32,000 bases of DNA from the NCBI GenBank assembly GCA_045605425.1, contig JAZUQA010000002.1:358715-390714 (forward strand). The letters run 5' to 3'. Positions within the stretch are counted from its first letter, which is position 1, and the number at the start of each line of letters is the position of its first letter. The notes under the pieces are model-generated. The model searched no databases and had not been told where the DNA came from. It worked only from the letters and a program-made list of their open reading frames with translations. A program made the position numbers and the translations under genes. This DNA comes from Acutalibacteraceae bacterium. GTDB lineage: Bacteria > Bacillota > Clostridia > Oscillospirales > Acutalibacteraceae. This document shows, one piece after another, positions 9,500 through 30,137 of the stretch.

Positions 9500-9504
9500 A
9501 ATTT

Positions 9505-9863: not shown

Positions 9864-9900
9864 AAAAATCAAGGGCAAAAATTCACTGCCCTTGATTTTT
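9864..9900. terminator. Bidirectional terminator between convergent genes
   Basis: AAAAATCAAGGGCA (9864-9877) / TGCCCTTGATTTTT (9887-9900), with an A-run on one side and a T-run on the other. Confidence 0.75.
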
Positions 9901-11081: not shown

Positions 11082-11336
11082 TTAATACAGATACTCATCA
11101 TTCAGCTCAACACCGAGCAATTCAAGTAGAGTATCTTTTTTGTTTTCAATACAAGTTTTCATAGCGGATTTGATACTGTCCATAGAAATGCTGTCAGGCA
11201 GCATAGCTCTCGGAACAGTATGACCGAACATTGCCTTGTATTGTTCTTCGATTTGATAGTATTCTTGATCTATTACAGGTTCGGGAGTATCAAGAAAAGC
11301 ATTCATAAAATCTGAAACCTTTTTATCTATACTCAT
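11082..11336 (-). CDS. putative immunity protein for the HExxH toxin (84 aa)
   Basis: Starts 4 nt after the toxin stop with an AAAGGAG RBS. Small, acidic and helical. The call is positional only. Confidence 0.45.
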   Translation of the reverse strand: MSIDKKVSDFMNAFLDTPEPVIDQEYYQIEEQYKAMFGHTVPRAMLPDSISMDSIKSAMKTCIENKKDTLLELLGVELNDEYLY

Positions 11337-12434: not shown

Positions 12435-12617
12435 TTATAATTTAATTCTTCCTTTTCTACTAAAGCAAGGACATTTAATGGTATTTGAAAGAACTTCTGT
12501 GGGTTTGCTTTCATATTTAGCACAACTATCTTTGCATTTTGGAGTTTGAAATTCGCATAAGTCACATTGTGATTTTGCGATAACTACCTCATTTTCTTTC
12601 CAACAAAACTTATCCAT
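12435..12617 (-). CDS. Cys-rich small protein (60 aa), putative immunity or zinc-ribbon protein
   Basis: GGAGGA RBS. Contains C-x2-C-x6-C-x3-C (CDLCEFQTPKCKDSC) plus C5 and CPC. Lies directly downstream of the ART toxin. Confidence 0.5.
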   Translation of the reverse strand: MDKFCWKENEVVIAKSQCDLCEFQTPKCKDSCAKYESKPTEVLSNTIKCPCFSRKGRIKL

Positions 12618-13604: not shown

Positions 13605-16600
13605 TTAATCAAATAGTTTCTTCACTTCATTTGCAGACGGTGTAATATACGGTTTCATTTGGAATGTGTTTTTAACTCCATCCGTGAAGTAAACCGTATT
13701 ATCTCTTAAGCCTGCAACTGAAACATTTTCAATAAGGTTATCAGCATCGTTAGCGCCAAGGGAGAATATGATACGTTCGGGGAATTTGTTAAGAATATTC
13801 TCGCCATAATACATACATTCTCTTACCGTTTGATACTCGAGCGATGTAACAACGAAATGAATACCGAATCCTGAACCATCTGCAATCATCTTAAGAAGCT
13901 TTTCACCAACTGACATATTATCGTCATTACCTCTACTTGATGAGAAGTTGGCGATAGCATTCATTGCTGCAATAGGATCAACTGCAATATCCTTTTCAGG
14001 TTCTTCACTGATAAACTCACTTTCATCAATGTAGTCACCTTTAAACATTGATTTGACAATATCCAAGAACTGTAGATTTTTAATAATAACAAAAATTACA
14101 TCATCGCTATTTTGCTTTTTCCATGCTTGATAGTTTTGATACACTTCATTTATAAAGTTGATAATATCTCCTCTGTTACTTGCAATTTTAAAATTATCAC
14201 TACAATTTGAAATCGCATCATAAAAATCTGCAGAACTATCGTCACCAACAAGAGAATCACCATCTATGCAATATACTGTTGCATTCTGATTAAGCAAAGC
14301 TGATATCATATAGTTGTTTGACACAGTATTTGCCATTCGCTCATTTGAACCGCAAATTAGCAAGTTGTGTTTCTTCTTTTTGTCGATTGTAATTGAAAAC
14401 GGTGGTGCAACTTTGATAAGAGTACCCATATGTATTTTTGCTGGCAATTCTGATGTGCGAGTAATAGAATTCTCAGTGAAATAATCAGACAATTGTGTTG
14501 TTCTTCCGCCTTCAAATGTTTGCAGTTTATACGGAGATTCTGAGTATGTTTCGCTTATCAACTTCAGATATTCTCGTTGCGTATTATCATCACAATATGC
14601 AGCTCTGAATCCTATATTGGATTGCTCTGTATAATCCAAATTCATTACTGCTGTTCCTATAGGTCCTTTCATCATTGCAAGAGCCTTAGAATCGTTTTCA
14701 TCTGAGAATAGATACCTCGCATCGTTTTCACCACATTTCAAACCTATACGAATTCGCATCTGTTCAATAGTACCGTGTGATAACGTAAGGTCAGAAATAA
14801 CTTTTGTGGACTGTGTTGCCATTAACAAATGAATACCAAAAGCACGACCCTCTGTAACAATTCTCTTTGTAAGTTCCGCACAATTCATTGCAACTTTACG
14901 ATTTGTAGAGTCATTAAATAAGATTTGGAATTCATCCATAATCACTAAAATTCTTGGCAAAGCTTGTCCTGTTACCTGTGTATACCCTTTAAGACTAGTT
15001 TGTCCGGCATCTTTAAAAAGAGAACCTCTATGTTCCATTTCAGCAACCAGATTTTCAAGAATGCTTTCGCCGAATTCCTGCATCGCATCCAAAGCAAGAA
15101 GCTGAATATGCGGCAGCTTAACAGATTCATAAACTTTAAACTCTGTACCACTCTTAAAGTCCATAAGATACAAATGTAGTTGTTCAGGACTGTAGTGAAG
15201 CATACTACTCATAATAAGAGTATGTAGCAATGTTGATTTACCAGAACCAGTAGCACCAGCAATAAGACCATGATGAGATGAGCCCTCTCCGATAGTAATA
15301 TTGATAATGCTATCACCATCACCAACACCAACCGGTATTTTCAAAGATTTCGACGATTCAAATGAGAATAAATCTTCAGCTATGATATCTTTAAAAGACA
15401 ATCCTTGTTTTTTGATAGTTTCGCTCTTTTCGACATATTCTTTGACAAAGCTATCAATTGTGTTGAAGGATAACGAAGCAGGAGTATTAATTTGCAGATT
15501 ATATGGAAGTAATCCATAATGTCCGTCTTTATAATCAATTGACGCACAATATTTTGAAATCTGCTCCAAGCGTTCATCAATACTTTCATAGCGAGAGAAG
15601 GTAATGTTGGGATTGTAACAAATTATAGTGAAAACACCACATTTGTTTCCGTTTCTTAGAATATTGGTCAGTAAATCCAAGCATCTTCCATCCATACCAC
15701 TTGGGAAATCATATAAAAGCAATAAAGTAATAGGTTCTGCTCGATTTGGGGTGTTTAAATTATAATCAAGGATATCCTTATATCTATTGCCTAGTTTTTC
15801 CTGTATAAACTCATCAATTTGAGCGTTAATTTTTTGAAGCCTGTCATAAATCTGTTCTTGACTTGTATATATCTTTTGGTCAAAGGTTTCAGATGAGCGT
15901 TTTCTGAAATCTAAAAACGGAATTATGCTATTACCCCTTTGTTCGCAATCAGCAATACATACATTTACTTTCGTTATAGGCATAAATGAGAGAAAACTCC
16001 AAATTACATGGTGTGTAAAATCAAGCATGCCTTTATTATTTTCTTCCGGACAGTTTAATAATAAATTAAACGAATTTCTCAAATCGAAAGTTAGCGGCAA
16101 TTCAACAAAAGAAGAATTTTCTGTTTCTGATTTCTTCTCTGCACCAAACCTATCCACTATAGTTTGATAGCCAATACTATCTGAGAAAATATCAGATGGA
16201 TACATTACATTTCCAAGTGTAACAAGAGATGGGAACAAAGTGTTTATTTCGGGAACCTGTGCATATGCTTTTTCATAGCTTTTCATCATTTCACATATTT
16301 GCTCAATATGGGCATCAAGTTCCATTGAATCTCGAGCGTCAACAAGTTTTCTGATTAACGGAGAGAAAGCAATACCTCTATTTTTAATTCCTTCAAATAT
16401 AAGCATGTATTTACTGAAAAATTTAGCAAACTCAACTTTTTCAGGCATAGAATGATATAAAATTGGCAGACCTCTCAAAGAGAAATTTTCTCCGTTTTGG
16501 GTTATTACCGTTGATAAATCAACAACTGACTGTAGTGCTTGTTCATATTCTCTTGAACGAGAACCATCAAAATTAGGCAAGTAAGATATCAAAGTATATA

Positions 16601-17990
16601 TTCCGCATTTACTTCCGTTTCTTAAGATGTTTCTTAATTCACTGAGGGTTCTTTCATCAAAGCCTTTAGGAAAGTCAAATAATACAACCAGTTCAACATT
16701 AAGAGTGTAATCAGGAGTATTTCGTGCATAATCAAATATGTTCTCATACTGGTTACCTAATTTATCTTGCAAAATATTTTCAATTTTCTCATTAAGTTTT
16801 CTTACTTTTTCTACCACTTCATCTTTACTAATATATATTTTTTCTCCGAATAACTCGGGGAGTTTTTTCTTAGCATCAAAAAAAGGAGAAATACTATTGC
16901 CTCTATTTTCTGGGTCAACAATGGTATATGTTAGTTTCTCTACAGGACATGATGATAGAAAGCTATACATCATAGAATGAAGTAAGCTTTGAACTACAGA
17001 ATTATTACTGTTATCATTTTTTATCATCCAAACAGGTGCATTGCGAGTGGATGTCATTATTGGGAATCTTATTGCACCATCATAAATAAGTCTTGAGCAT
17101 TTTTCTTTAATTATCGAGGCTACAATTTTTGACTGAACAAAATATTCAACTGGATACTCAACATAGTACATATTCATAACTTCATCTAAAATTTCGTTAG
17201 ATGAGTTTACTTTGTACACGGATTTTGAGTAGTTTGACATTATTGCAGCTAAATAGTCAACAAACTCATCCGGTAACACATCATCAAGTGATGTGCATAT
17301 TCTATCAGCTACTTTATCAAGAGTTGCGAGATGGTTATTCTCAAAATTGGATATCTCTGTTTTATGTCTTTCTACCATGATTCCGCGCTGCGTGAAGTAT
17401 GTTTCTTTTAATGAGGCAAGATTCTCCTCGGTTATCGGTGGTAAAACTTCTTCAATTTCCTTAACAAAAGCAGCAACTGTATTGCGAAGCACAATTAGTT
17501 CTTCATAATCTTTTTTTCTCTGACTGGAAAAAAGATAATTCAAACCATTTATTAAACCAGGGAGAATATCTTCCGAATACTTTTTGAAAAGCGAATTAAA
17601 AGAAGTCTTGATTTCATCCAATGCAGAGAAATAATCAGAAGTATCTGTATACTTCTCACTTGTAGTGTCAGCTAACAATTCCTCTTTCTTTTTCTTTGTT
17701 TTCACATAATACTTATCAACTTTCGACAATTTCTCATCCAGCTTGTCTATTTCGGAAAGTATTCTTTTTGCATCAGCTATAGTCTGTCTTGATTTTTTCT
17801 GCACATTAGAGCAATTATTCTTGTATGTGCTGTCTAAGCTTGATAAAGCATTACTGTGTTTGTTTAACAGCAGTCTTTTGTCCTTATCATAATTTGTTTG
17901 AGTTGTATTTATCAGTGTTTCAGAAGAATCTGCAAACTTATTCAAATCAGAAACAAGTGCAATTATTTCGCTTTGTGCTAACGCTTTCAT
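13605..17990 (-). CDS. FtsK/SpoIIIE-family (EssC/EccC-like) multi-domain ATPase, apparently soluble (1461 aa)
   Basis: One canonical module: Walker A GATGSGKST, Walker B ILVIMDEFQ, and FGIHLLMATQ. Two upstream paralogous degenerate modules (VDPENRGNSISPFFD..LRNILRNGSKCGIYTLISY and ADCEQRGNSIIPFLD..LTNILRNGNKCGVFTIICY). One downstream degenerate module (LLICGSNERMA, FGIHFVVTS). The N-terminal ~300 aa are coiled-coil-like. No hydrophobic TM stretch or FHA-like region is visible. Confidence 0.85.
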   Translation of the reverse strand: MKALAQSEIIALVSDLNKFADSSETLINTTQTNYDKDKRLLLNKHSNALSSLDSTYKNNCSNVQKKSRQTIADAKRILSEIDKLDEKLSKVDKYYVKTKKKKEELLADTTSEKYTDTSDYFSALDEIKTSFNSLFKKYSEDILPGLINGLNYLFSSQRKKDYEELIVLRNTVAAFVKEIEEVLPPITEENLASLKETYFTQRGIMVERHKTEISNFENNHLATLDKVADRICTSLDDVLPDEFVDYLAAIMSNYSKSVYKVNSSNEILDEVMNMYYVEYPVEYFVQSKIVASIIKEKCSRLIYDGAIRFPIMTSTRNAPVWMIKNDNSNNSVVQSLLHSMMYSFLSSCPVEKLTYTIVDPENRGNSISPFFDAKKKLPELFGEKIYISKDEVVEKVRKLNEKIENILQDKLGNQYENIFDYARNTPDYTLNVELVVLFDFPKGFDERTLSELRNILRNGSKCGIYTLISYLPNFDGSRSREYEQALQSVVDLSTVITQNGENFSLRGLPILYHSMPEKVEFAKFFSKYMLIFEGIKNRGIAFSPLIRKLVDARDSMELDAHIEQICEMMKSYEKAYAQVPEINTLFPSLVTLGNVMYPSDIFSDSIGYQTIVDRFGAEKKSETENSSFVELPLTFDLRNSFNLLLNCPEENNKGMLDFTHHVIWSFLSFMPITKVNVCIADCEQRGNSIIPFLDFRKRSSETFDQKIYTSQEQIYDRLQKINAQIDEFIQEKLGNRYKDILDYNLNTPNRAEPITLLLLYDFPSGMDGRCLDLLTNILRNGNKCGVFTIICYNPNITFSRYESIDERLEQISKYCASIDYKDGHYGLLPYNLQINTPASLSFNTIDSFVKEYVEKSETIKKQGLSFKDIIAEDLFSFESSKSLKIPVGVGDGDSIINITIGEGSSHHGLIAGATGSGKSTLLHTLIMSSMLHYSPEQLHLYLMDFKSGTEFKVYESVKLPHIQLLALDAMQEFGESILENLVAEMEHRGSLFKDAGQTSLKGYTQVTGQALPRILVIMDEFQILFNDSTNRKVAMNCAELTKRIVTEGRAFGIHLLMATQSTKVISDLTLSHGTIEQMRIRIGLKCGENDARYLFSDENDSKALAMMKGPIGTAVMNLDYTEQSNIGFRAAYCDDNTQREYLKLISETYSESPYKLQTFEGGRTTQLSDYFTENSITRTSELPAKIHMGTLIKVAPPFSITIDKKKKHNLLICGSNERMANTVSNNYMISALLNQNATVYCIDGDSLVGDDSSADFYDAISNCSDNFKIASNRGDIINFINEVYQNYQAWKKQNSDDVIFVIIKNLQFLDIVKSMFKGDYIDESEFISEEPEKDIAVDPIAAMNAIANFSSSRGNDDNMSVGEKLLKMIADGSGFGIHFVVTSLEYQTVRECMYYGENILNKFPERIIFSLGANDADNLIENVSVAGLRDNTVYFTDGVKNTFQMKPYITPSANEVKKLFD

Positions 17991-18024: not shown

Positions 18025-19179
18025 TTATTTTTCTTCTAATTCAAAATTACATTTACCTTCACAATCTTTCCCAAACCCAACAACTAATGAAGTGGTAACC
18101 TGTAACGGATAACTGAAAATTTCTACCATTTCACCGCCTATGGCAGGGTCACTTGTATTGCAAATAAGTGTATATTGTTTAAGATTGTTTAACAGACGAG
18201 GAATATACTCTTCGTTGTTAGAATTTAAAATGTCAATAATAAGTTTTATTCCTATACTTGTTATAAAGTTAATATCAACGGAAATACCAGGTTCAAATTT
18301 TACGCTCTCAACATTTTCTTGATTTGAATATACGTGATGATTTGCTTCAACACGACCTGAAAGGTCACCACTACCCAATGCACACTTATAACAAGGCATG
18401 TTTTTGTTGGGAAGGTGATAAAAAATTTCTCCAGCATACGCTCTTTCCCAAAATCCGATAGATATAAAAGCTGCGTCAAAATAAATTGCGATTTTATTTG
18501 CATAAACATCAGCTGTTCTGTTATCTCCACAACCGACAAATATTGTCTCAAAAGGAACGCACATCTTATCAAGAATATCCTTGGGAATATTCTGAATAAT
18601 TCCGCCAAAAGTCTTAATATTTGCTTTTGGATTAATATTCAAAATCTTTCTTTTAAGTGCATTTACCTTTAAATCTCCAACATCTTCAATGCCACATTGA
18701 TGGCGACATACATTGTGGTACTCAAGAGTGTCTGCATCACATAAAACATACTTTTCAACACCTGCTCGGGCCAATTCCATAGCAACTAAACTGCCAACAG
18801 AACCACAACCGATAATTACAGCACATTTTTTCTTCATAATATCTGTTTCAAGAATACCTTTATTTCTTGAAAAAATGCTCTGATATAAACCATACGATTC
18901 GGTTATTACTTTCTCTCCACACCAAAAGAATTCGATACTTTCATTAGTAATTACACCACAGAAACCATCAATGACAGGGGCACTATCTTCAGGAAGAATA
19001 TCACCAAGATACTCACCTTTGTCGGATAATTCATTGGGAAACACATTGAAAATTCCAGTATCTTCAAAGTATTTACCATATAATTTCATACACTGTTTAT
19101 TGTGCAGTTGTTCTTCGGAAATAAAAACGGTAAGAGGGATATCTTCACCAAAGAAATTTTTAGGGCGCTTAATATTCAT
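18025..19179 (-). CDS. E1-like (ThiF/MoeB/UBA-type) adenylyltransferase
   Basis: Rossmann motif AVIIGCGSVGSLVAMELARAGV, then LCDADTLEYHNVCRHQ (the D.D....N..RQ signature) and PCYKC. ATG at 19179 lies 4 nt after the JAB stop. An extra domain of about 110 aa sits at the N-terminus. Confidence 0.8.
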   Translation of the reverse strand: MNIKRPKNFFGEDIPLTVFISEEQLHNKQCMKLYGKYFEDTGIFNVFPNELSDKGEYLGDILPEDSAPVIDGFCGVITNESIEFFWCGEKVITESYGLYQSIFSRNKGILETDIMKKKCAVIIGCGSVGSLVAMELARAGVEKYVLCDADTLEYHNVCRHQCGIEDVGDLKVNALKRKILNINPKANIKTFGGIIQNIPKDILDKMCVPFETIFVGCGDNRTADVYANKIAIYFDAAFISIGFWERAYAGEIFYHLPNKNMPCYKCALGSGDLSGRVEANHHVYSNQENVESVKFEPGISVDINFITSIGIKLIIDILNSNNEEYIPRLLNNLKQYTLICNTSDPAIGGEMVEIFSYPLQVTTSLVVGFGKDCEGKCNFELEEK

Positions 19180-19183: not shown

Positions 19184-20188
19184 TCAGTCCTCGTTTCTGT
19201 TAAATCTAATAATTTTAATAACAGAGTCAACAACTCCGGATTGCTTTCTTGCTTTTATTTTTATACCGCTGTCTTTTTCACGTTCAGCTTTTGCTCTACC
19301 ATATGCTTCGGTAAAAAGACCTCTTTGATACTTATAGCATTTATTATCATAGGAAAGCGTAATACTTTCATCATCAACAATTAACATAAAGTACAACTTT
19401 GTTGTTTTATCAATAGTTTCTTGATAAACTGTAAGATAGTTGTTTTCAAGTGAAATAGCAGTTTCAATGTTAAGTGTCTCTGCCATAAAGGTTAAATCAT
19501 CTACGATTTCATCAATTAAGTCTTCTTGGATCTCCTCATTAACAGGTGACTCACTTGTTTGTATTTCTGAACACTCATAATCTTTTAATTTCGGTAAGAT
19601 GAATTTCATAAATGATTCCAAACTTACTGATTTATGGTATCCATCATTAATATTTCTGGTTCTATTCGATGAACCAAGAAGATTCTCCATAATAGTGCCA
19701 AAACGTTCTTGTGTTTTAAATTTCAGTAGATCATCTGGAATTAAATTATCTCCAACATCATATTCGATTTTTTTATACCTACAGGGGTAAGCAACATGAT
19801 ACATTGTGATTCTAAAGTTAGGGTCAATATTTACCAATGCGGAAATCGCACCTTCATTTCGCATAGAAGCATATTTGAAGTTTGTACCATCATCAGTTGA
19901 TGAGAACTGGTCAAAAGACCCCGGGTGACGATGCCACAAGCCTATCAATGTAAGTTGCTTGTCATACAAATTAGCTATTTTGTTTATCAAATGTTGCGTA
20001 TATTTTTGATCATATTCAAAATAAGCAACCTCAAAAACTGATTTTGGGCCGGGGTCTATAGCTTCAATTATGTACCACGTATCATCTTGCACGGTTCCTA
20101 AAAACAAACCACCGGTTTCTGTTTTAATTTTTTCAGTTGTTTCTGCCAAAACAGAGGTGTATGCTCTATTTGAAAAAACTACTCTCAT
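19184..20188 (-). CDS. JAB/MPN+ (JAMM) metalloisopeptidase with an unknown C-terminal domain
   Basis: ETGGLFLG (Glu) plus LWHRHPGSFDQFSSTD, which equals H-x-H-x7-S-x2-D. GGAGG RBS before ATG 20188; the upstream alternative start in the ORF track is unlikely. Confidence 0.85.
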   Translation of the reverse strand: MRVVFSNRAYTSVLAETTEKIKTETGGLFLGTVQDDTWYIIEAIDPGPKSVFEVAYFEYDQKYTQHLINKIANLYDKQLTLIGLWHRHPGSFDQFSSTDDGTNFKYASMRNEGAISALVNIDPNFRITMYHVAYPCRYKKIEYDVGDNLIPDDLLKFKTQERFGTIMENLLGSSNRTRNINDGYHKSVSLESFMKFILPKLKDYECSEIQTSESPVNEEIQEDLIDEIVDDLTFMAETLNIETAISLENNYLTVYQETIDKTTKLYFMLIVDDESITLSYDNKCYKYQRGLFTEAYGRAKAEREKDSGIKIKARKQSGVVDSVIKIIRFNRNED

Positions 20189-20266: not shown

Positions 20267-20821
20267 TTAATAATTACCTTCCATTGCGACATCGTCGCCG
20301 ATTTCACCGTTTAACCACATCTCGCAAAGAATAATCCACTTGCAAGCCCAACTCAATGCTGAAGCAGCAGAAGTAGACTGTGTCTTATCTCCTTTAAAAT
20401 ACTTCGGGTCAGCGGTACAAATAAAATATTCTTCATTACGCCCGAAATGATCTTTATAGATGTGTGGAAGACCAAGTCCAAATCCTCTGCGACAAACTTC
20501 ATCATAGTTATTGTTATAAGTATCCATAACAATAGGCATCATTTTGTCAGCTACATCTTTAAGTCTTGGACTAAGTGGAAGGATTTGGACAGTTCCACCA
20601 TACTCATATTCACTGCCAACATGAGGATGTGAATTTTTATAAATAAGCATTATATCCCACACCATGCCACCAGCTCCGGTAGGCTGAACCTTTCCTCTCC
20701 AATATAATCTACCAGAACCATCCTGCAACTGGTTTATGGTAAATGAAGGGAAGAATTTTTTCATTGCGGCAACTTCCATCTGATAAAGTTGAGGGTCACT
20801 TTGATACCAATAATAAGCCAT
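20267..20821 (-). CDS. E2-like (UBC-fold) protein, prokaryotic type
   Basis: N-terminal helix, then RLYWRGKVQP...VWDIMLIYKNSHP (E2-like beta-meander). LPHIYKDHFGRNEEYFIC resembles an HPN-type loop followed by the catalytic Cys. The gene sits directly before JAB and E1. Confidence 0.55.
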   Translation of the reverse strand: MAYYWYQSDPQLYQMEVAAMKKFFPSFTINQLQDGSGRLYWRGKVQPTGAGGMVWDIMLIYKNSHPHVGSEYEYGGTVQILPLSPRLKDVADKMMPIVMDTYNNNYDEVCRRGFGLGLPHIYKDHFGRNEEYFICTADPKYFKGDKTQSTSAASALSWACKWIILCEMWLNGEIGDDVAMEGNY

Positions 20822-20832: not shown

Positions 20833-21006
20833 TTATGCCAATTTTCCATCAGGAACCTGAATTCCTGAAAGTCCCTGGTCCATAGCATCATCTTTCTTTT
20901 CGACTTCACCACTTGCTGTAACCACAACAGGTTCACCTGTACGTAAAGCTTCAGCCAATGCTCTTCTTCTTGCAGCAACAGCATCATTGTTTACATTGTT
21001 ATCCAT
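20833..21006 (-). CDS. small protein (57 aa, below ORF-track cutoff) in the position a Ubl gene occupies in Bil-type operons
   Basis: GGAGGT RBS 9 nt before ATG 21006. Translation: MDNNVNNDAVAARRRALAEALRTGEPVVVTASGEVEKKDDAMDQGLSGIQVPDGKLA. Stop TAA at 20835-20833, 11 nt before the E2-like start. Confidence 0.55.
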   Translation of the reverse strand: MDNNVNNDAVAARRRALAEALRTGEPVVVTASGEVEKKDDAMDQGLSGIQVPDGKLA

Positions 21007-21030: not shown

Positions 21031-21918
21031 TTATGCAGCGTTATTTCCTGTAGCTGAAAAGCTTCTAATAATTTCACCGTTTTCATTAATTGAAGCAACA
21101 CAGCCTCTAAGAACAGCTTCTGCTCCTTCTTCGCCCTTTTCCTGAACCATACGGGCATAAGAGTTATCAGCAAGTTCGCTCTTCTGATTAAGAAGTGTTT
21201 CAAGATCAACACCTCTGTTCTGATTACGAATCATTGTGTATTCCATATAGTCAGCCATCTGCTGGAGAGCAGCTTGGTCTGATTCAATAAAGCCGGAAGT
21301 TCTCTTAATATAAATAATGTATTCAATTGTATTCTTTACAGTATAGTAGAAGCTCTGAACTATAAGTTTTAAAATTCCCCAAATGATTGAGAGAACTGTG
21401 AGGAATCCGAACTGACCAGAAATAGCGATTTTGATTACGTCCCAAAGTAATGAGAAGAAATATTTTGCTGCGCTTAAGAATACGCCACCAATACCGGCAC
21501 CAACAAGGCCCATCATTGCAGCACTACCTGCATCTCCGCTTTCTGCTCCGAGGATTATACCTATAATCAATCCGGTAACTATACCAACAAGAGATACAAT
21601 AAACTGGAACATAATTTTCGCTTTATTTTTCTTAAGGTCTTCAACGTTTGCTGCAACTAATTGCTGACAGCAGTCATAACAAATGGCTTTATTCTTATAC
21701 TGGTCATCATTTACACCATAGTTATCAAAACAATCTTGACATATGTATTTGCCACATCTTGCACATTTAGCTACTGCAGGTTCATCTTTGTGATAGTAAC
21801 ATGCAGGGCCATTGAATGACGGTTTTGCATTTGCAGGCGGAGTGAATGTGGGTGTTGGGGGTGTAAAGGTAGGAACAGCATCAGTTCCTGCATTAGTTTT
21901 CATTTGCTCGTTATCCAT
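21031..21918 (-). CDS. Membrane protein: Pro-rich N-terminus, B-box/zinc-ribbon Cys cluster, about 3 TM helices, cytoplasmic tail
   Basis: CYYHKDEPAVAKCARCGKYICQDCF...AICYDCC. Hydrophobic helices IMFQFIVSLVGIVTGLIIGIILGA, MMGLVGAGIGGVFLSAA and FLTVLSIIWGILKLIV. AGGAGG RBS. Besides the distal M48 peptidase, this is the only polytopic membrane protein of the operon. Confidence 0.7.
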   Translation of the reverse strand: MDNEQMKTNAGTDAVPTFTPPTPTFTPPANAKPSFNGPACYYHKDEPAVAKCARCGKYICQDCFDNYGVNDDQYKNKAICYDCCQQLVAANVEDLKKNKAKIMFQFIVSLVGIVTGLIIGIILGAESGDAGSAAMMGLVGAGIGGVFLSAAKYFFSLLWDVIKIAISGQFGFLTVLSIIWGILKLIVQSFYYTVKNTIEYIIYIKRTSGFIESDQAALQQMADYMEYTMIRNQNRGVDLETLLNQKSELADNSYARMVQEKGEEGAEAVLRGCVASINENGEIIRSFSATGNNAA

Positions 21919-21955: not shown

Positions 21956-22225
21956 TTAAAATTTAACTTTGTTGTACTGGTCTAAAGATTGAGCCAGTTT
22001 TTCTAATTTAGGCAAAGCTGCATTTAAAGTATCAATAGGTGTTGCTGTTAATCTAGCTATTTGCTGCATTAACATATTGAACTGAGCAGCTTTAGCATCA
22101 TCCCAATTAGATGTTGCAGACATTCCCGATTTGATACCACTACTTATTCTTTCAATATCACGAATGGTATTGGAAATATCTTTTTTCATTTCCCTGATTG
22201 TTTCAGGAGAGGCTTTTACTGCCAT
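21956..22225 (-). CDS. WXG100-like small helical protein (89 aa)
   Basis: AAGGAGG RBS. Central NWDDAKAAQF (W-x-D) and C-terminal DQYNKVKF-stop. Paralogous to the other W-x-D proteins in the operon. Confidence 0.7.
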   Translation of the reverse strand: MAVKASPETIREMKKDISNTIRDIERISSGIKSGMSATSNWDDAKAAQFNMLMQQIARLTATPIDTLNAALPKLEKLAQSLDQYNKVKF

Positions 22226-22238
22226 TTAAATACCTCCT

Positions 22239-22520
22239 TTAAAAATTAACATTTTCGTATTCGCCTACAGCCTGTAGTAAATCGTTAAGTTTTACCATAC
22301 ATTCCTGAAGTTCGGAAATCGGTTTTGTTAATGCACTACAGCATTCTTCAACGATACCACCTAAAGCAGCGTATTTTTGGTCTTTCCAACCACCAGAACC
22401 TGCTTGTTGATAACTTCGCTGTAAACTACGTGATGCTGATTCCAACTCGTGAATTGATGTTTTGCAACAACCAATGCCACCTTGTATAGCAGCGCTTTCA
22501 ACAGATACACCACTTGCCAT
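22239..22520 (-). CDS. WXG100-like small helical protein (93 aa), stand-alone copy of the toxin N-terminal domain
   Basis: AGGAGG RBS before ATG 22520; the ORF track extends to 22574. GGWKDQKYAALGGIVEECCSAL and a C-terminal GEYENVNF-stop align with the toxin N-domains. Confidence 0.7.
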   Translation of the reverse strand: MASGVSVESAAIQGGIGCCKTSIHELESASRSLQRSYQQAGSGGWKDQKYAALGGIVEECCSALTKPISELQECMVKLNDLLQAVGEYENVNF

Positions 22521-22574
22521 TTTTGGAAACCTCCTGACTTGATTTTTATATTGCAAGGCTTTCGCCCAAAACAA

Positions 22575-23321
22575 TTACAAAGACGTACTCAAATACTCTT
22601 CAATACTTGAGATGCAATTATCTATAGCACTCTTGTTGCCCTGTGCTTTTTCTGATGAATTGCTCTCAAATTTTTTTGTCGCAGCTGTATATGCAGACAA
22701 ATCGCTCTCAACTCTATTGAAAGTTGATTTCATTCTTTCTAGTTTAACCTTAATTTTATTGCATCTGTTTTTTTGTATAGCTCGTTCATTTTCGCATTGT
22801 GATTTTTTTGACTTACAGTCTGATATTTCTTTTTGTAGTTGTTGTTTCTTTTCCTCTGAATGTCTGACTTCATCTTCCAATTGTTCACACCGCATTTCAC
22901 ACTGAGATACCTGTTGCTCCAATGCATTTATTTGCTCTTGAATTGCTTGTCTCGTTTCATCGTCTTCTGTTTCCGCAAGACGAGCACGTAAAGAAGCTAT
23001 CTGTGAATTCAAAGAAATTATTTGTTGTCTTAAAGTGGCAATATTATTTTTGATTTGGGGTATCCTTTTTATTAAAGAATTATATTCATTAGTTGCTTGA
23101 TTTGCTTTTAATTCGAGTTGCTCGATTTGCTTGCTTAATTCTTCTATTTCACGCTCTAATTGTGTGATTTCTCCTTTTGTTCTATTAATTTGTATCTTAC
23201 ACTCCGACGTTACACTGTCAGCCTGATTAGTTGCTCTTAATGAGATGCCGTTTATATCTGTTTGAAAAGTAGATAACGCATCTTTAACTGTCTTTAATGC
23301 TTCTGTTGATACATCTACCAT
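22575..23321 (-). CDS. Cys-rich coiled-coil protein (248 aa)
   Basis: Long heptad-like Q/E/L-rich sequence. The N-terminal helix VDVSTEALKTVKDALSTFQTDINGI resembles the toxin N-termini. Nine Cys residues are scattered in the coil. Confidence 0.65.
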   Translation of the reverse strand: MVDVSTEALKTVKDALSTFQTDINGISLRATNQADSVTSECKIQINRTKGEITQLEREIEELSKQIEQLELKANQATNEYNSLIKRIPQIKNNIATLRQQIISLNSQIASLRARLAETEDDETRQAIQEQINALEQQVSQCEMRCEQLEDEVRHSEEKKQQLQKEISDCKSKKSQCENERAIQKNRCNKIKVKLERMKSTFNRVESDLSAYTAATKKFESNSSEKAQGNKSAIDNCISSIEEYLSTSL

Positions 23322-23331
23322 AGTAAAGCTC

Positions 23332-23559
23332 CTAATATTTTTCTGATGCTATTTTCTCAAACTTTTCGATTGAAGAACAACATCTGTCCGCAGTGACCAT
23401 AACATCTTTTGATTGATTTGCAATCTCAGTTATAGAAGAGGATAATTCAGCATATTTTTCATCCTTCCATATAGCCGAAGCCTTTGAAATTCCTGTACTT
23501 AGCTTTTTTATTGAAGATTGAAAAACATGCATTTCTTTTCTGATATTTGCGTATCCCAT
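23332..23559 (-). CDS. WXG100-like small helical protein (75 aa; alternative GTG start at 23571)
   Basis: GGTGAG RBS before ATG 23559. Contains IWKDEKYAEL (W-x-D-x-K-Y), a vicinal CC, and ends ...KIASEKY. Confidence 0.65.
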   Translation of the reverse strand: MGYANIRKEMHVFQSSIKKLSTGISKASAIWKDEKYAELSSSITEIANQSKDVMVTADRCCSSIEKFEKIASEKY

Positions 23560-23560: not shown

Positions 23561-23905
23561 TTACTCACCACTCACTTGATCCATTTTTCCATTTAACCAA
23601 CATTCATCTAATTGATACGGAAAAACATCTAATTGTCTTATCGTATAGTGTGTATTAGGGTTATAGTCGAAAAATAAAATTAAAGACATATAGGTATTCC
23701 AAGACATTACTCTTTTTAAACTTTCAATAGAGTTATATGTTTGTCTCGACACACCAATCGCATTAGCAACTTCGTCTTGTGTAGCATTTGCAGCACCCCT
23801 CAATGCGGGTAACGCTTTTGTCAAACTGTTAATTAAACGATCTTTGTCTTCTTTGCTAAAATGCCAATAGTCCATATAATCTTTTCTTTTTCTTATCTGG
23901 TTCAT
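23561..23905 (-). CDS. XRE-type HTH regulator, first gene of the operon (114 aa)
   Basis: ATQDEVANAIGVSRQTYNSIESLKR is a helix-turn-helix. The start lies 25 nt from the left inverted repeat of the recombinase segment. Confidence 0.7.
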   Translation of the reverse strand: MNQIRKRKDYMDYWHFSKEDKDRLINSLTKALPALRGAANATQDEVANAIGVSRQTYNSIESLKRVMSWNTYMSLILFFDYNPNTHYTIRQLDVFPYQLDECWLNGKMDQVSGE

Positions 23906-24032: not shown

Positions 24033-25157
24033 TTAAATTGCTATTGAATTTAGTTTTTCCATAGACATTCTTTTGAGTTGCATAGAGGAGTGCACATATT
24101 TATCAAGCGTGATTTTCACACTGGAATGACCTAATATTTCACTAAGTGTTTTTACATCAAAGCCAACTTCAACACATCGGGTTGCAAAAGTGTGTCGTAA
24201 CGAATGAAAATTCGCATCAGAAATCATGCCTTGTTTCAAATAAGATTTAAATCGATTTTGCATCGTTCGCGGTTCTACAATGTCAATAGAATTACCCGAT
24301 AAAAGATAGGCGTTGGGTATTGTAATAAAGGGTATCATTTTTTCTAACAAAAAATCAGGTAATGGTATTACTCTGACAGAATTATAAGTTTTAGGGTCTG
24401 TAATTATAATTTTAGTTTTTGATGTGCAATTAAAATCATCACATTGTAACCTTTGCATAGTTGCCTCAATTTTTAACGTTTTATCAGCTATAGAAATATT
24501 TTTGCATTTTAGAGCACACAATTCTCCAATGCGTATTCCTGTATACAAACAAATTAAAATACCTAATTTACATCTATCAATATCGTTTGATATCACTGAT
24601 ATTAGTTTTTGTTCTTCAGAAATACTTAAAACTCGCATTTCATTAGTAGCTTTTCTGATGGGAAGTCTGCTAAAAGTACAGTTTATTATCTCTCCATGAC
24701 TTTGAGCAAATTTGAAAGTTTCTTTTATAATAACCATAATATCTGACATACTTTTGCTTGATAATCCACCACCAAATTTTTTACCATTTTGCATTTTGTT
24801 GGCGATAAAACTTTCAACTAATTCAGTACTGATTTTATTGATTGGATATTTACCGAGCTTGGGTTTTATATGATTTTCAATAATGTTTTTATATCTTATA
24901 TAGGTAGACTCTTTAACAATAAGTTTTTTACTAATAAGCCAATCATCAAGCCACTTACTATATATGGTATTTGATTTAGAGGTAACAAAATTTACAGTTT
25001 GTGTTTGCTCATTAAATAATTTGTTTTTTACTTCGGCATATGTTTTTGCATATAAGTATCGATATTTTGCTTTACCATTTTCATCGTAAAATAAAATATA
25101 TCTTGCTTCCCATCGACCGTCTTTTCTCTTGTAAATGTTTTCACCTGTACGTGGCAT
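24033..25157 (-). CDS. Tyrosine site-specific recombinase / integrase (374 aa)
   Basis: Arm-type N-terminus (ENIYKRKDGRWEARY). Catalytic-domain motifs TGIRIGELCAL (Arg), HSLRHTFAT (H-x-x-R) and LGHSSVKITLDKYVH (His...Tyr). Confidence 0.9.
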   Translation of the reverse strand: MPRTGENIYKRKDGRWEARYILFYDENGKAKYRYLYAKTYAEVKNKLFNEQTQTVNFVTSKSNTIYSKWLDDWLISKKLIVKESTYIRYKNIIENHIKPKLGKYPINKISTELVESFIANKMQNGKKFGGGLSSKSMSDIMVIIKETFKFAQSHGEIINCTFSRLPIRKATNEMRVLSISEEQKLISVISNDIDRCKLGILICLYTGIRIGELCALKCKNISIADKTLKIEATMQRLQCDDFNCTSKTKIIITDPKTYNSVRVIPLPDFLLEKMIPFITIPNAYLLSGNSIDIVEPRTMQNRFKSYLKQGMISDANFHSLRHTFATRCVEVGFDVKTLSEILGHSSVKITLDKYVHSSMQLKRMSMEKLNSIAI

Positions 25158-25734: not shown

Positions 25735-26577
25735 TTAAGTAAACACTTCATTTAATCTATACCTGCTCACATTGTAGCTATTCTCACGCTCAATGGCACC
25801 GGATTTGACGAGTTCGGTTAATCGCTTCTTTGAAAATGATGTTGAACCGAAATATGCATCAAAATTTGCAACAGGAAGAACAACCCAATCTGTATCCTCT
25901 TGTCGGTTGGCATAGTAATATTTTACGAGAGTTTCAAGTGCATAAGCTGTGCTCGGTGCTGTTGTAAAATTAGTTATCTTTGCTTTCGTTTCTTGGGTCA
26001 GTTCATAATCCTTGTTTTTGAGTTCACCAAGTTCTAAAGCAGATGAAAGTATATCATCAAATCGCAGAATCCAAGCACCTTTGGTTTTGAGATAATAAGT
26101 GTTGAAATGCATACGGGCAACCTTGTCACGCCAAGCAGTATCAAAGTTTTTATCCATAAGAGTATATTTTTCAACCTCTTTTGCCGTAAACTTATCGGGA
26201 TTGCTTATGGCAAATCTCATAGCATTATGGAAATGTCTGTAAAACCAACCTTCACCGTTTTCTGTAACAAGCCCAGGAAACTCGTTGTGGTACTCTCTGA
26301 AATCTGTACTGAACCGCCATTCTTCTTTTTCTTTTGATTTATCCTTATCGGGAATACTGCACCAAGCAGAGATTGCCCGTCTTGCATATTCAATGTCAGC
26401 AGTACCGTTCTTGAACATATATCCTCTTGCAATTATGGTCAGCACCCTCGGAAATCCCTCAAAGCCTTGTATTCCCTCACAGGTAAATCTGCTGAAAAAA
26501 GAGTTATCATTTCTGTTATCACGCTTGTATATCGGTGCTTCCGTGTAAGCCTTAAATTCGGCTATCTCGTTCAGCAT
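25735..26577 (-). CDS. hypothetical protein co-transcribed with the YonO-like polymerase (280 aa)
   Basis: AGGAG RBS 8 nt before ATG 26577; the ORF-track TTG at 26595 is less likely. It overlaps the upstream gene's 3' end. No recognised motif. The C-terminal segment (KKRLTELVKSGAIERENSYNVSRYRL) could be a winged helix. Confidence 0.6.
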   Translation of the reverse strand: MLNEIAEFKAYTEAPIYKRDNRNDNSFFSRFTCEGIQGFEGFPRVLTIIARGYMFKNGTADIEYARRAISAWCSIPDKDKSKEKEEWRFSTDFREYHNEFPGLVTENGEGWFYRHFHNAMRFAISNPDKFTAKEVEKYTLMDKNFDTAWRDKVARMHFNTYYLKTKGAWILRFDDILSSALELGELKNKDYELTQETKAKITNFTTAPSTAYALETLVKYYYANRQEDTDWVVLPVANFDAYFGSTSFSKKRLTELVKSGAIERENSYNVSRYRLNEVFT

Positions 26578-29500
26578 AAGACTTGCTCCTGTCAATAATA
26601 TATTTCTCTGTTTCGGTCAGCAAAATATCAAAGATATATCTTCTGTAGCCTGCCGCAACAACATAGGGTACCGCATCATTCAGCCTGATGATTTTTGAAA
26701 GCAGTTTTCTGCATTCTTCTGTTACAGCTTCTTTGTAATCATAGGTCTTTGATTTGTTTCTGTATGCCAACATCATAGCCGTCATTTCTTCACTGTCATT
26801 TTCAAAATGAAGTGAAGTAAGGTTACGCAATTTGTTCTCGGCATATCTGTCACAGATAATATCAGAAAACACTCTGTCACCGTTGTGTCTGAAATCACAG
26901 AATAAATCAATATAACTTTCAAAATGCTCACCGACAAGATAAGTTTTCAAAAATTGTTCTCTTTCTTCGGGCAGCATAAACTGCCATTTGCACTTTTGCA
27001 TCTGAGTATAGATTTCTTCAATTTCTTCGGGTGTGAAATCGGTAAAGAGTGCATAAAGCTCGTCTGTGTCATAATCATTTTCCTGACCACGCATAAAGAG
27101 AATACGCTCAATATCAGATTTTCTTTCCGGTATATCCGACCTGTTTCTGTTATTACGGATTCTTTTTAAGCAATGCTCATAATCATCCAACAGTGTAGTA
27201 ACTCTGTTTAACTTCTTTTTATCAAGACCTGATTTCCAATCAGGATTCTGAGCAAAAGTGAAAATTTCACTGTCAGGTGCAGTCGGTTCCTTGGCTTTTG
27301 GTGTGTTCCTTTTCAGCTCATAAGCATAAAATGGTAACCTTTCAAGGTTTGAGCTGACTTTCGACCAATCTGTATTTTTGAAAAACTCCTTGAACTGCTC
27401 GTCATAAGTCTTCTCGTACCAAGACCTGCGTTCGTTCTGCTTTTCAATAAGGGACTTGTATTTAAGGAACAGACTTTTCGGTGCTCTGTTGGTTACAAGA
27501 TATTCCGAAAGGTCAGGCTTAACACCGCTTTTTGCTGAGTCAATTTCCAAGCCTGTAAGAATGGCCAGAGTTTCTGTTTCTTTCCTGTACTGTGCTTTTT
27601 TACCTTTTGCATTCTCATCATAAGCTAAAATACTTCTGTTAAGTGCCGCATTGGAAATTTGTCCCACACGGGAAGAAAAAGTATTTTTAACAGTTTCAAA
27701 TCTTGCTTCCCAATCCTGTGCATCGGATACTATTGGTTCCTCTGTGGGTATGAATAACAAAGGTAACGGATTATCACTTTTGCCGTAATACTCAGGCTCC
27801 GTTTCTTTTGTGTAAAGATATGAAATGATAATTCTGTCTGCAATTGTCTTTACCATATCACCGTCAAAATCTGCACCGCCAAGTCTCATAGGTATATCAG
27901 AGCTATCCGATACCATAATGACATCGGTTAAATGGCTGAAATATTTATCTCTGTAATATCCGACATCTTTTAAAGGTCGCACCTGAACACTTTCGTTTTT
28001 AGATATATGCGGATTGCGAAGAAGTGAATATTTGTAATCTGTTCCATAGCTGTTACCGGGAGCATAAACATAATTTCCGGACAATTCTTCATCAATAATA
28101 TCTGCAAATTTTCTGCTGCCATCAGCAAGAAAAGCAAAAAGCGACATTAAGTCAGCAGATAAATATCTGTTGTCACCCTGAACAAAAAGCTGTCCTATTG
28201 CATATTTCCTTAAAATATTCTCTGCAATATCGTCTATGTCTTTAGAGAAGAAAGGCTCATCAATGAGCAATGAGTTTTTGCTAATCAGCCTTGCTTTGAT
28301 TTTTAAATCCTCATCAGCATCATCCAAATGCTTTGCGTAATAATCTATTCTGTATTTTCTGTTGTTGCAGTAATCGTAATATGCCTGCTCCGTTGCTTTT
28401 GTCAGCCACTCTCTTTTATCACGTGACGGACTTTCTTTCCAGCCTGAAGGCAAATCTTTAGGTCTGAATTTTTCTTCAGGTATTGCAACGGTATTTAAAA
28501 ACTGAAAGTTAAGTTCAGTTAAATTTTCATTTTCACCCTTACCTACATTTGAAATATATAACGAGTGTCTGTACTTTTTACAGCGTTCAAGATAATCGTT
28601 AAAGCTCAATCCATTTTCTTTAAGCCAACCTTTACCCTTGAACATTGTATCGGTAAGAATAAGGTTAATCTTATCAACAGGATGCTCAACACCCCACATA
28701 TCTTTAACGGAATATATACCTAAACTTTTAAGAAATGATTTGAAATCAACCTCGTGTACCATACCTTTTATGTAAGGTAAACGAATCTGAAAAGAAAAAT
28801 GAATATGCTTACCGCAGAACTGTTTATCAATTTCTTTTGCAAATGCAGGAGAGATAAAACCTTCACCGTCGAATGCATCGCAAGTAAATTCAACTTCCTT
28901 TTCGGCACGGTTGTATTTTTTTACTGCCGTATTTTTATCTTTTGATGTAACTGTTACGGCGTGAGTTTTAATAAATCTTTCCCAAGTTTTTATGATAACA
29001 ATGCTGTCTTCATCAAAAAGATGTTTGCTTTCAATTCTTGTACCGCCCGAAAACATAAGTCCGTTGTAAGCGTAAAGCTTACTTAACTGACACAAACCGA
29101 TATTCATATCAAGCTGTATTCTTGATTTAACTTTTTCATAAACATCACTTCTTATGAAAGACAAGCGAGCGTTTCTGCTCATACTTGCAGAGCGTTCAAA
29201 GGCAACAAAGTTTTTCATACCTGTTCCTAAATCAATATTTATTCCCTCGGGACGGAACATTGATTTTGCTTTTAACTGTCTTAAACGGATACGTTCGCTC
29301 TTTGCATCTCTGTCAAAAATTCCACCGAAGTCAATGTAAACTATCACATCAGAGAGGTTAGAAATTTTTGTATCGCTCTTCGGCTGAGTAAATTTATCAG
29401 AAGTTAAAACACTCATTAACTGATAAAACATTGCACAGTCTTCCTGCAAACTGTTTTCTTTATTCATCAAGCACTTTGCAGTTGCACTGTTATTAAGATT

Positions 29501-29590
29501 AAAAATATATGTTTCTTCATTTTGCTTTTCGGCATAAGAGATAATTCCTCTCGCCGAAAGCATCGGTATTTCATAAGTAATATGTGCCAT
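26552..29590 (-). CDS. YonO / cellular-RdRP-like two-barrel RNA polymerase homologue (1012 aa)
   Basis: MRLGGADFDGDMV matches the (G)GxDxDGD catalytic loop of the eukaryote-type RdRP / phage SPbeta YonO family and the NADFDGD loop of RNAP beta-prime. Large size. GAGGTG RBS. Confidence 0.65.
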   Translation of the reverse strand: MAHITYEIPMLSARGIISYAEKQNEETYIFNLNNSATAKCLMNKENSLQEDCAMFYQLMSVLTSDKFTQPKSDTKISNLSDVIVYIDFGGIFDRDAKSERIRLRQLKAKSMFRPEGINIDLGTGMKNFVAFERSASMSRNARLSFIRSDVYEKVKSRIQLDMNIGLCQLSKLYAYNGLMFSGGTRIESKHLFDEDSIVIIKTWERFIKTHAVTVTSKDKNTAVKKYNRAEKEVEFTCDAFDGEGFISPAFAKEIDKQFCGKHIHFSFQIRLPYIKGMVHEVDFKSFLKSLGIYSVKDMWGVEHPVDKINLILTDTMFKGKGWLKENGLSFNDYLERCKKYRHSLYISNVGKGENENLTELNFQFLNTVAIPEEKFRPKDLPSGWKESPSRDKREWLTKATEQAYYDYCNNRKYRIDYYAKHLDDADEDLKIKARLISKNSLLIDEPFFSKDIDDIAENILRKYAIGQLFVQGDNRYLSADLMSLFAFLADGSRKFADIIDEELSGNYVYAPGNSYGTDYKYSLLRNPHISKNESVQVRPLKDVGYYRDKYFSHLTDVIMVSDSSDIPMRLGGADFDGDMVKTIADRIIISYLYTKETEPEYYGKSDNPLPLLFIPTEEPIVSDAQDWEARFETVKNTFSSRVGQISNAALNRSILAYDENAKGKKAQYRKETETLAILTGLEIDSAKSGVKPDLSEYLVTNRAPKSLFLKYKSLIEKQNERRSWYEKTYDEQFKEFFKNTDWSKVSSNLERLPFYAYELKRNTPKAKEPTAPDSEIFTFAQNPDWKSGLDKKKLNRVTTLLDDYEHCLKRIRNNRNRSDIPERKSDIERILFMRGQENDYDTDELYALFTDFTPEEIEEIYTQMQKCKWQFMLPEEREQFLKTYLVGEHFESYIDLFCDFRHNGDRVFSDIICDRYAENKLRNLTSLHFENDSEEMTAMMLAYRNKSKTYDYKEAVTEECRKLLSKIIRLNDAVPYVVAAGYRRYIFDILLTETEKYIIDRSKSYAERDSRI

Positions 29591-29792: not shown

Positions 29793-30137
29793 TTGAAAGA
29801 AAACAAAAAGACGAAACTTGTAAAGGCATATTTTACTGAAGAAGATTACGAAAGACTTAATTATTTTTGCAGCATAATGAAGATTTCAAAATCAAAAATG
29901 ATTCGGTTTCTGCTTTATTACAAGAACATTAAAGAAGCTCCGCCTGTTGATTACACAGTTTTAATCAGAGAAATGCGTGCAGTCGGTAACAATTTAAATC
30001 AGCTTGCGAGAGTTGCAAATGCAAAAGGTTGGATTAATGAAAAGGAATTGCGAGTCGCTATTCTTTCTCTTCGTGAACTTGAAAAGAAAATATCGGCTGA
30101 GTTTCAGTTAAGCAAGGAGGATGAATATTGGCAGTAA
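29793..30137 (+). CDS. mobC: MobC-type relaxosome accessory protein
   Basis: RHH-like N-terminus and the characteristic VGNNLNQLARVAN motif. TTG start after AGAGGTGA. Overlaps the relaxase start. Confidence 0.8.
   Translation: MKENKKTKLVKAYFTEEDYERLNYFCSIMKISKSKMIRFLLYYKNIKEAPPVDYTVLIREMRAVGNNLNQLARVANAKGWINEKELRVAILSLRELEKKISAEFQLSKEDEYWQ

Follow-up and report, generated by a model that had tools for sequence, protein, structure and literature searches.

The proteins of the WXG100 family (EsxA-EsxB type, Pfam PF06013) are hairpins of about 90–100 residues with a Trp at the turn and a conserved C-terminus. Several paralogues are encoded per locus, and the gene for an EccC/EssC-like ATPase adjoins them. 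Known tail motifs of Esx proteins are YxxxD/E and HxxxD/ExxhxxxH. At the core of type VII secretion systems (T7SS), in Bacillota including Clostridia, are a WXG100-type protein and an ATPase related to FtsK, and toxin substrates are encoded beside small WXG100-like partners. The subtypes T7SSa, T7SSb and T7SSc-j have a membrane-bound ATPase and, except for T7SSd, a YukD/EsaB-like protein with a ubiquitin fold which is not conjugated (Garrett, Higginson & Palmer 2024, PMC11217815). Here we analyse an operon which shares the hairpins, the ATPase and the toxins with these systems. It is located in a stretch of 32 000 nucleotides (the window; positions 358 715–390 714 of contig JAZUQA010000002.1, assembly GCA_045605425.1) from an Acutalibacteraceae bacterium, and encodes five helical hairpins with W-x-D at the turn, three of them small proteins and two the N-terminal domains of toxins. 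Unlike the T7SS subtypes, it has an ATPase without transmembrane (TM) segments, a full set of activating enzyme (E1), conjugating enzyme (E2) and JAB peptidase, and a 57-residue protein (p57), while EssA, EssB, EsaA and YukD were not detected. The survey cited above does not mention ThiF or JAB, and the present operon is absent from it.

LXG toxins and their Lap partners of T7SSb (TelA-LapA3-LapA4, 8gmh; LapD2, 7uh4) also resemble the system: a helical N-terminal carrier precedes a variable toxin, a candidate immunity gene follows downstream, and small helical proteins are encoded nearby. A relation to LXG, considered in a first-pass annotation which had been made from the letters of the window alone, was not found. 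Pfam scans of the toxins and the small proteins gave no match to LXG (PF04740), the carrier being 91 residues long rather than about 200, and scans of the hairpins gave none to the Lap families or to the NCBIfam models for T7SS targets. Zhang et al. (2012) reportedly described polymorphic toxins whose N-terminal trafficking domains are of the WXG/LDXD type. The present toxins agree with the WXG/LDXD type in having a constant N-domain of the WXG superfamily, interchangeable toxin domains from the same pool, a host among the Firmicutes and a link to an ATPase of the YueA/EssC clade (Iyer et al. 2011, PMC3239186). Type II CBASS (anti-phage signalling that is based on cyclic oligonucleotides), with Cap2 and Cap3, is the closest relative with respect to E1, E2 and JAB. 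It differs in that here E1 and E2 are separate proteins, a dedicated p57 is present, and the enzymes are linked to an EccC-like ATPase and WXG100-like proteins. No CD-NTase and no cyclic-nucleotide-activated effector domain was detected in any operon protein by Pfam and PADLOC.

The hairpins, 75–93 residues in size, are encoded as follows:

23332–23559, minus strand: protein A, small hairpin, 75 residues from the ATG at 23559 (alternative start GTG at 23571)
22239–22520, minus strand: protein B, small hairpin, 93 residues from the ATG at 22520
21956–22225, minus strand: protein C, small hairpin, 89 residues, with an N-W-D-D-A-K/Q turn (NWDDAKAAQF)
12630–13496, minus strand: polymorphic toxin 1 with an ADP-ribosyltransferase (ART) domain, 288 residues, hairpin at residues 1–91 (13224–13496)
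11340–12392, minus strand: polymorphic toxin 2 with an HExxH motif, 350 residues, hairpin at residues 1–91 (12120–12392)

The first-pass annotation had proposed these five segments as paralogous helical domains, and their strand, coordinates and motifs were all confirmed. Protein A has the turn W-K-D-E-K-Y (IWKDEKYAEL) and a C-C pair at W+29/30 (counted from the Trp), and ends with ..ASEKY-COOH, that is, with the invariant Tyr. It is the most divergent of the five and is devoid of the first 13 or so residues of the domain; its orthologues in 12 loci have an E-x-Y terminus without exception. Protein B, the nearest stand-alone relative of the toxin N-domains, contains the segment GWKDQKYAALGGIVEECCSAL with the turn G-G-W-K-D-Q-K-Y and ends with GEYENVNF-COOH. 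Protein C has no Cys and ends with DQYNKVKF-COOH. In the ART toxin, GWNDKKYKDLGDVVNDCSKSL is followed by the domain end QEYENVNF and by AGGTPPPT, an AGG with a Pro/Thr linker, and in the HExxH toxin EWKDKKYKELGDVVQECSKAL is followed by QEYDNVNL and a DGS linker.

Pairwise phmmer comparisons of the segments (E-values at Z=1000) gave E = 5e-34 between the two toxin N-domains, about 1e-12 between B and the toxin N-domains, 5e-5 between B and C, and 5e-4 to 9e-4 between A and B. Since the 248-residue coiled-coil protein encoded next to them scored as noise against the hairpins (E>0.5), we regard the five segments as true paralogues on the basis of sequence comparison, and not as an artefact of helical composition. 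The vicinal Cys-Cys pairs noticed earlier in two of the small proteins are real and are conserved in A and B. Five conserved Cys residues are found in B (GCCK, ECCS and QEC), and the orthologues of A keep RCCSS. From the register of the hairpin, the Cys of B at W-26/27 would be expected opposite that at W+29; they could form a metal site or a disulfide staple.

For the family as a whole, a hidden Markov model (HMM) was built from the five copies and three close relatives and was searched exhaustively against 1.84 billion cluster representatives (50% identity). This search revealed 513 representatives at E≤1e-3, of which 216 reached E≤1e-10. A word-indexed search with the ART N-domain had found just seven near-identical relatives, and the family became visible only in the exhaustive search. 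The hosts are Clostridia from the human and animal gut, among them Faecalibacterium, Ruminococcus, Oscillospiraceae and Lachnospiraceae, and a single sequence of C occurs on 388 contigs. In nearly all full-length matches the hairpin begins within the first few residues of the protein. The 116 complete-domain matches comprise 29 stand-alone proteins, 81 proteins fused with a longer tail and six with a short tail. The stand-alone members have their C-terminus inside the motif [E]-Y-[E]-x-Φ-x-Φ-COOH, whereas the 81 fused members run on from it into a Gly/Ser/Asn-rich linker and the tail. Stand-alone and fused forms had been noticed in the window to share their end point, and this generalises to the 29 and 81 representatives; within the window it applies to B and C, which stop where the toxin N-domains end, whereas A stops five residues earlier at the invariant Tyr.

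Conservation was determined on the 81 fused and 29 stand-alone representatives, 110 in all, which stem from clustering at 50% identity. The Trp is present in 100% of the toxins and 97% of the stand-alone proteins, and the Asp at W+2 and the Tyr near the domain end (Y86) in 100% of both groups. The motifs first seen in five copies are thus conserved in homologues, although two details required correction. Within the W-x-D-x-K-Y turn, W and D are conserved, but the Lys at W+4 is not invariant (90% of toxins, 86% of stand-alone proteins), being replaced by Gln in most C orthologues. The conserved Cys is real (94% of toxins, 76% of stand-alone proteins) and is located at W+15 instead of about W+14. 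B-type stand-alone proteins have additional conserved Cys residues at W-25 and W+29, together with an invariant Pro. At the turn the resulting signature reads G-x-G-W-x-D-x-K-Y, and helix 2 closes with [E]-Y-[E]-x-Φ-x-Φ. In the most distant relative (ATPase identity 44%) W-N-D and K-Y-E-Q-I-G are kept, while the Lys at W+4, the Tyr at W+5 and the conserved Cys are absent. Since even this relative keeps them, we regard W, D and the Y-E tail as the motif's core. The G-x-G-W-x-D-x-K-Y turn, the Y-E-x-Φ-x-Φ-COOH tail, the Cys at W+15 (and those of the B type) and the partner ATPase without a membrane anchor distinguish the family from the WXG100 proteins.

A relation to these proteins was nevertheless found at the level of profiles. 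Protein C matched Pfam WXG100 with E = 4e-6 and 27.4 bits, just above the cutoff of 27.3; for the HExxH toxin the match had E = 7.9e-6 over residues 5–87 (26.5 bits). The same Pfam family was matched by 16 out of 37 small members (best E = 1.1e-8) and by 16 out of 71 toxins, and no other family recurred. When a 37-sequence family profile was searched against the PDB sequences, Staphylococcus aureus EsxA (2vs0) was found with E = 1.5e-4, positions 1–87 aligning with 1–87, and HP0062, Bacillus anthracis EsxB, SAG1039, gbs1074 and Geobacillus EsxA were also matched end-to-end. The list is headed by spike HR1 and designed bundles, and the WXG100 matches sit among unrelated coiled-coil noise. The alignment with EsxA is gapless and places G-W-k-D over N-W-E-G, with the Asp in register with the Gly of W-E-G. 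The earlier proposal that Asp takes the position of the WXG100 Gly is borne out by this alignment together with the Pfam matches. Gly residues of the family are found at W-3 and W-1. In the AlphaFold2 (AF2) model of B (pLDDT, the predicted confidence score, 90) helix 6–42 and helix 48–91 are connected by the loop 43–47 (GGWKD), and the Asp is probably the N-cap at the start of helix 2. Foldseek comparison of this model with EsxB and EsxA chains gave TM scores of 0.73–0.84 and root-mean-square deviations of 1.4–1.9 Å, with E-values that are not significant; Lap structures are also among the matches, again without significance.

Several observations weigh against an assignment to the WXG100 superfamily. 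Proteins A and B alone stay below every Pfam WXG100 threshold, as do most family members for Pfam and NCBIfam. The literal W-x-G motif is absent, the Gly position being Asp in 100% of the 110 representatives. In the Foldseek search of the B model no E-value was below 0.2, CHMP3 was on top and other hairpins ranked equal; the method does not discriminate here because the hairpin fold is so simple. Taken together, the profile data place the hairpins in a divergent W-x-D clade of the WXG100 superfamily, one that fails the literal W-x-G definition.

The genes of the hairpins belong to an operon on the minus strand with the order HTH (helix-turn-helix) regulator, A, coiled-coil protein CC, B, C, Zn-ribbon membrane protein, p57, E2, JAB, E1, ATPase, toxins with small open reading frames (ORFs), and M48 peptidase. 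Besides the hairpin genes it comprises:

24033–25157, minus strand: tyrosine integrase, at the head of the operon
23561–23905, minus strand: HTH regulator, at the head of the operon
22575–23321, minus strand: coiled-coil protein CC, 248 residues, between A and B
21031–21918, minus strand: Zn-ribbon membrane protein, 295 residues, present in every complete locus
20833–21006, minus strand: p57, 57 residues, between the membrane protein and E2, ending with ..V-P-D-G-K-L-A-COOH
20267–20821, minus strand: E2-like protein, 184 residues (precomputed match to PF26395, E2-CBASS; PADLOC E2, 1.9e-9)
19184–20188, minus strand: JAB/JAMM peptidase, about 334 residues from the conserved start MRVVF (ORF to 20224)
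18025–19179, minus strand: E1-like adenylating enzyme of the ThiF family, about 384 residues from the conserved start MNIKRPKNFF (ORF to 19233)
13605–17990, minus strand: ATPase of the FtsK/SpoIIIE family, 1461 residues (FtsK_SpoIIIE, 2.5e-30)
12435–12617, minus strand: small ORF after a toxin gene, 60 residues, candidate immunity protein
11082–11336, minus strand: small ORF after a toxin gene, 84 residues, candidate immunity protein
10804–11070, minus strand: small ORF after a toxin gene, DUF1292, candidate immunity protein
9900–10781, minus strand: M48 (HExxH) peptidase with several TM segments, in most loci the last gene of the operon, downstream of the toxin-immunity cassettes; it might serve in processing, immunity or export

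A scan with the ATPase, using one genome per species, identified 16 loci in metagenome-assembled genomes (MAGs) of gut Clostridia, with ATPase identities of 65–95%. The hosts are Faecalibacterium, Oscillospiraceae, Acutalibacteraceae, Anaerotignum, Lachnospiraceae, Acetatifactor, Marvinbryantia, Ruminococcus and Ruminiclostridium; one of the 16 loci is from a MAG labelled ‘Bacteroidetes’, a label which is dubious. Mapping by six-frame HMM and phmmer searches showed an identical gene order across the loci, from the integrase to M48, with one or two toxins. The same operon was reached independently via domain matches in the contexts P0002, P0005, P0007, P0109, P0139, P0116 and P0136. Overall, the operon position of the hairpins is conserved in about 25 loci, the linkage to the operon holds in every informative context, and integrase and HTH gene are conserved upstream in many loci. 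In the public annotation all proteins of the operon are ‘hypothetical’. The most divergent copy of the system (L029; MT836827.1, ‘Bacteriophage sp.’ from human faeces) is found on an unannotated contig of 10 kb with a serine recombinase as neighbour. The toxin encoded there shares its HExxH domain with the second toxin of the window, but the hairpin in front of it is much diverged.

Two of the neighbouring proteins have features of their own. The Zn-ribbon membrane protein consists of an N-terminal Cys-rich module resembling a Zn-ribbon or B-box, about three TM segments (residues 100–191) and a soluble C-terminal tail, and is the sole candidate for a membrane partner adjoining the hairpin genes. 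Protein CC ends with ..IEEYLSTSL-COOH, five residues beyond a conserved Tyr as in B, and its N-terminus resembles those of the hairpins. In three loci (L006–L008; L006:647–2038) the orthologue of CC continues after ..EQYLSANV with GIGS and a domain of about 215 residues without a Pfam match. From the termini, compared by eye, and from this fused form, CC may be an elongated relative of the hairpins or an LXG-like carrier. Homology, as a sixth hairpin paralogue, has no statistical support, the hairpin profile giving only noise-level, out-of-register scores of the coiled-coil type.

The toxins are modular. C-terminal to the hairpin, the ART toxin has an ADP-ribosyltransferase domain (ADPrib_exo_Tox, 2.6e-32) and the HExxH toxin a metallopeptidase-like domain with the sequence HELAH and a weak match to Peptidase_M91. 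Pfam analysis of the tails of 71 fused members identified a C39-like papain fold (eight proteins), ART (seven), the glutamine deamidase Gln_amidase (five), Endonuclease_NS_2, Colicin-DNase and WHH (three each) and LHH (one), and more than half of the tails had no Pfam match. Loci with 84%-identical ATPases encode different toxins. This is a polymorphic-toxin architecture with the hairpin as constant trafficking module. From their position, the small ORFs downstream of the toxin genes are candidates for immunity proteins. In one locus (L009:16190–16468, plus strand) an extra, very divergent hairpin ORF of 92 residues (profile E = 2e-5) is located directly upstream of the second toxin gene; it may encode a toxin-specific partner similar to the Lap proteins.

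The best PDB matches of the ATPase are Thermomonospora curvata EccC (4nh0, 7e-31), EccC5 and YukB. With the NCBIfam models for EssC/EccC it reached 120 bits, compared with cutoffs of 509–778 (EssC equivalog: 778). One intact Walker A motif (GATGSGKS at residue 912) and a Walker B motif are present, and the N-terminus is helical. By visual inspection, two tandem degenerate P-loop-like domains (..DPENRGNS.., ..DCEQRGNS..) appear to precede the active ATPase domain and one to follow it. The membrane anchor of canonical T7SSb EssC, with its N-terminal FHA domains and two TM helices, is not found here.

The catalytic motifs of the three conjugation enzymes are invariant in 17–18 loci. E2 shows an invariant YKN.HP motif, and the Cys within EEYFIC.ADP is likewise invariant. 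E1 (ThiF, 7.8e-24; PADLOC CBASS E1-E2, 8.8e-25) contains an N-terminal extension of about 130 residues, the sequence GCGSVGS and Cys-x-x-Cys motifs. JAB (Prok-JAB, 1.4e-7; PADLOC JAB, 6.2e-13; NCBIfam Cap3-like and 6A-MBL cap2_3) has an intact H-x-H-x7-S-x2-D motif and a C-terminal extension of about 200 residues without a known fold. Their putative substrate is p57, which has no family match. Its family comprises 398 clusters, and one sequence is present on at least 1000 contigs. The C-terminus G-K-L-A-COOH is found in 115 out of 120 homologues and in all loci, including the divergent ones. A few homologues extend beyond it by three to four residues (KED, RED, KEG, RES, REA or KGGT) and resemble the precursors of ubiquitin-like proteins which are trimmed by JAB or deubiquitinating enzymes. 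The AF2 model of p57, of medium quality (pLDDT 69), shows an alpha-beta-beta-alpha-beta order with a free C-terminal tail and is not a clear beta-grasp.

The first-pass annotation had left open whether the conserved hairpin end is a recognition signal for the ATPase or for E1. The CBASS enzyme Cap2 adenylates cGAS at its disordered C-terminus, the last residue being Gly, and Cap3 cuts a linear cGAS-GFP fusion precisely behind the final residue of cGAS. The C-termini of the hairpins are bulky and variable, with F, L, I, V or W in last position, Tyr in A and some ending with ..YESL or ..YEEA, whereas that of p57 is nearly invariant and has precursor-like extensions. For these reasons we infer that E1, E2 and JAB most likely act on p57 rather than on hairpin tails, and a role of the latter as E1 signal is unlikely. 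The tail of EsxB is recognised by EccC. By analogy, the hairpin tail could be the structural end of helix 2, an element recognised by the ATPase or a partner, or both.

How might the system work? We think it fairly probable, by analogy with T7SS, that the WXG100-like hairpins are substrates and targeting partners of the EccC-like ATPase, and that the toxins are exported for interbacterial antagonism. Four-helix bundles would form between a toxin N-domain and a small partner, and likewise between B and C. The ATPase would recognise the bundle together with its conserved C-terminal tail and would drive toxin export; the small ORFs downstream of the toxins would protect the producer, and conjugation of p57 would regulate or license some step. 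A more specific version is put forward only tentatively: p57, activated by E1 and E2, might be attached reversibly (JAB catalysing the reversal) to the hairpins, for example at the Lys at W+4, to the ATPase or to the membrane protein, and so license recognition or export, with the ATPase docked on the Zn-ribbon protein and conjugation replacing YukD/EsaB, in what would be a type VII-like toxin delivery machine of a class not yet described. Several results speak against toxin export. No hydrophobic or TM segment was detected in the 1461 residues of the ATPase and no FHA match, and Pfam and NCBIfam revealed no EssA, EssB, EsaA or YukD in the operon. An export channel is not evident, since these canonical components are undetected and only the Zn-ribbon protein and the M48 peptidase are membrane-bound. 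Finally, E1, E2 and JAB best match models of the Cap2/Cap3 type, which is otherwise known from anti-phage CBASS. The same data suit the main rival explanation, a conflict or defence module that belongs to a mobile element and works inside the cell. A soluble FtsK-like ATPase and a CBASS-like conjugation switch would control toxins acting in the producer, in abortive infection or addiction, and the hairpins would be assembly, regulatory or inhibitory modules. This rival is kept in consideration because the ATPase is unanchored and the conjugation enzymes resemble those of defence systems; also in line with it, the operon is always found alongside an integrase or recombinase on mobile elements, and one relative is on the faecal phage contig mentioned above. 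However, PADLOC matched no system model beyond generic E1/E2/JAB and P-loop domains, and a toxin repertoire with cassette swapping behind a constant N-domain is a hallmark of exported polymorphic toxins. Moreover, type VII secretion is so far the only setting in which an ATPase nearest to EccC/EssC is known to be paired with a carrier related to WXG100. We thus consider an intracellular module unlikely.

Distinctly less probable still is that the hairpin itself is a ubiquitin-like modifier, with E1 adenylating the Φ-x-Φ-COOH end of A, B or C and JAB cutting the toxins, as linear modifier-cargo fusions, between ..NVNF and AGG. The idea draws on the stand-alone proteins ending exactly at the end of the toxin domain, with a flexible linker beyond it, on the kept catalytic motifs of E1, E2 and JAB, and on the precedent that CBASS-type E1-E2 enzymes take substrates without a beta-grasp fold via the C-terminal tail, where Cap3 cleaves linear fusions. 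Yet p57, encoded directly upstream of E2, is a far better candidate, the hairpin termini are unlike the Gly end of the characterised cGAS substrate, and a toxin cut from its carrier before delivery would defeat the targeting role of the latter. A merely compositional resemblance, caused by coiled-coil bias with coincidental motifs, would account for the weak matches to spike HR1, designed bundles and CHMP3. It is refuted by the pairwise phmmer data, with E-values of 1e-34 and 1e-12 against noise for the true coiled-coil protein next to them, by the exhaustive profile search and by the conservation counts, with W, D and Y at 97–100% in the 110 representatives and the operon position kept in about 25 loci; we give it practically no weight.

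With respect to novelty, the hairpins are a new W-x-D clade of the known WXG100 proteins, and none of the T7SS subtypes and defence systems that were searched corresponds to the system around them. Full-text literature searches for WXG100 or T7SS with ThiF/E1, E2 and JAB found no description of the W-x-D clade with an E1/E2/JAB operon, and PADLOC indicated no known defence system. What is new about the system is the combination of an EccC-like ATPase without TM segments, separate CBASS-like E1, E2 and JAB, a mini-protein ending with G-K-L-A, a Zn-ribbon membrane protein and an M48 peptidase. For a family which is common in gut Clostridia and has so far been annotated only as ‘hypothetical protein’, a searchable profile is now available. 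The N-domain profile is a useful hook for toxin discovery, as Pfam gives no match for more than half of the fused tails. Type VII systems carry a non-conjugated ubiquitin-fold component which is unexplained, and a relative with conjugation enzymes makes the role of ubiquitin-like chemistry in type VII-like export testable. Being carried by mobile elements that bear an integrase, the module may influence how strains compete in the gut.

Further genes of the window point to such a mobile context:

4482–4946, plus strand: smpB, preceding the island
5745–6098, plus strand: tmRNA gene with the tag DNNTVLKAA, preceding the island
9496–9861: TnpV
29793–30137: MobC
30128–31513: relaxase

The region of smpB and the tmRNA gene is a classic integration hot spot. 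The genes for the integrase, MobC, relaxase and TnpV indicate one or more mobilisable integrated elements, and the toxin operon is mobile-element cargo. A direct-repeat search for the ends of the element gave just two short pairs at chance level. The window also contains an ORF of 1012 residues (26552–29590, minus strand) with a Pfam match to cellular-type RNA-dependent RNA polymerase (PF05183, 1.9e-15) and no PADLOC match. An ORF of 286 residues (25735–26595) overlaps its end.

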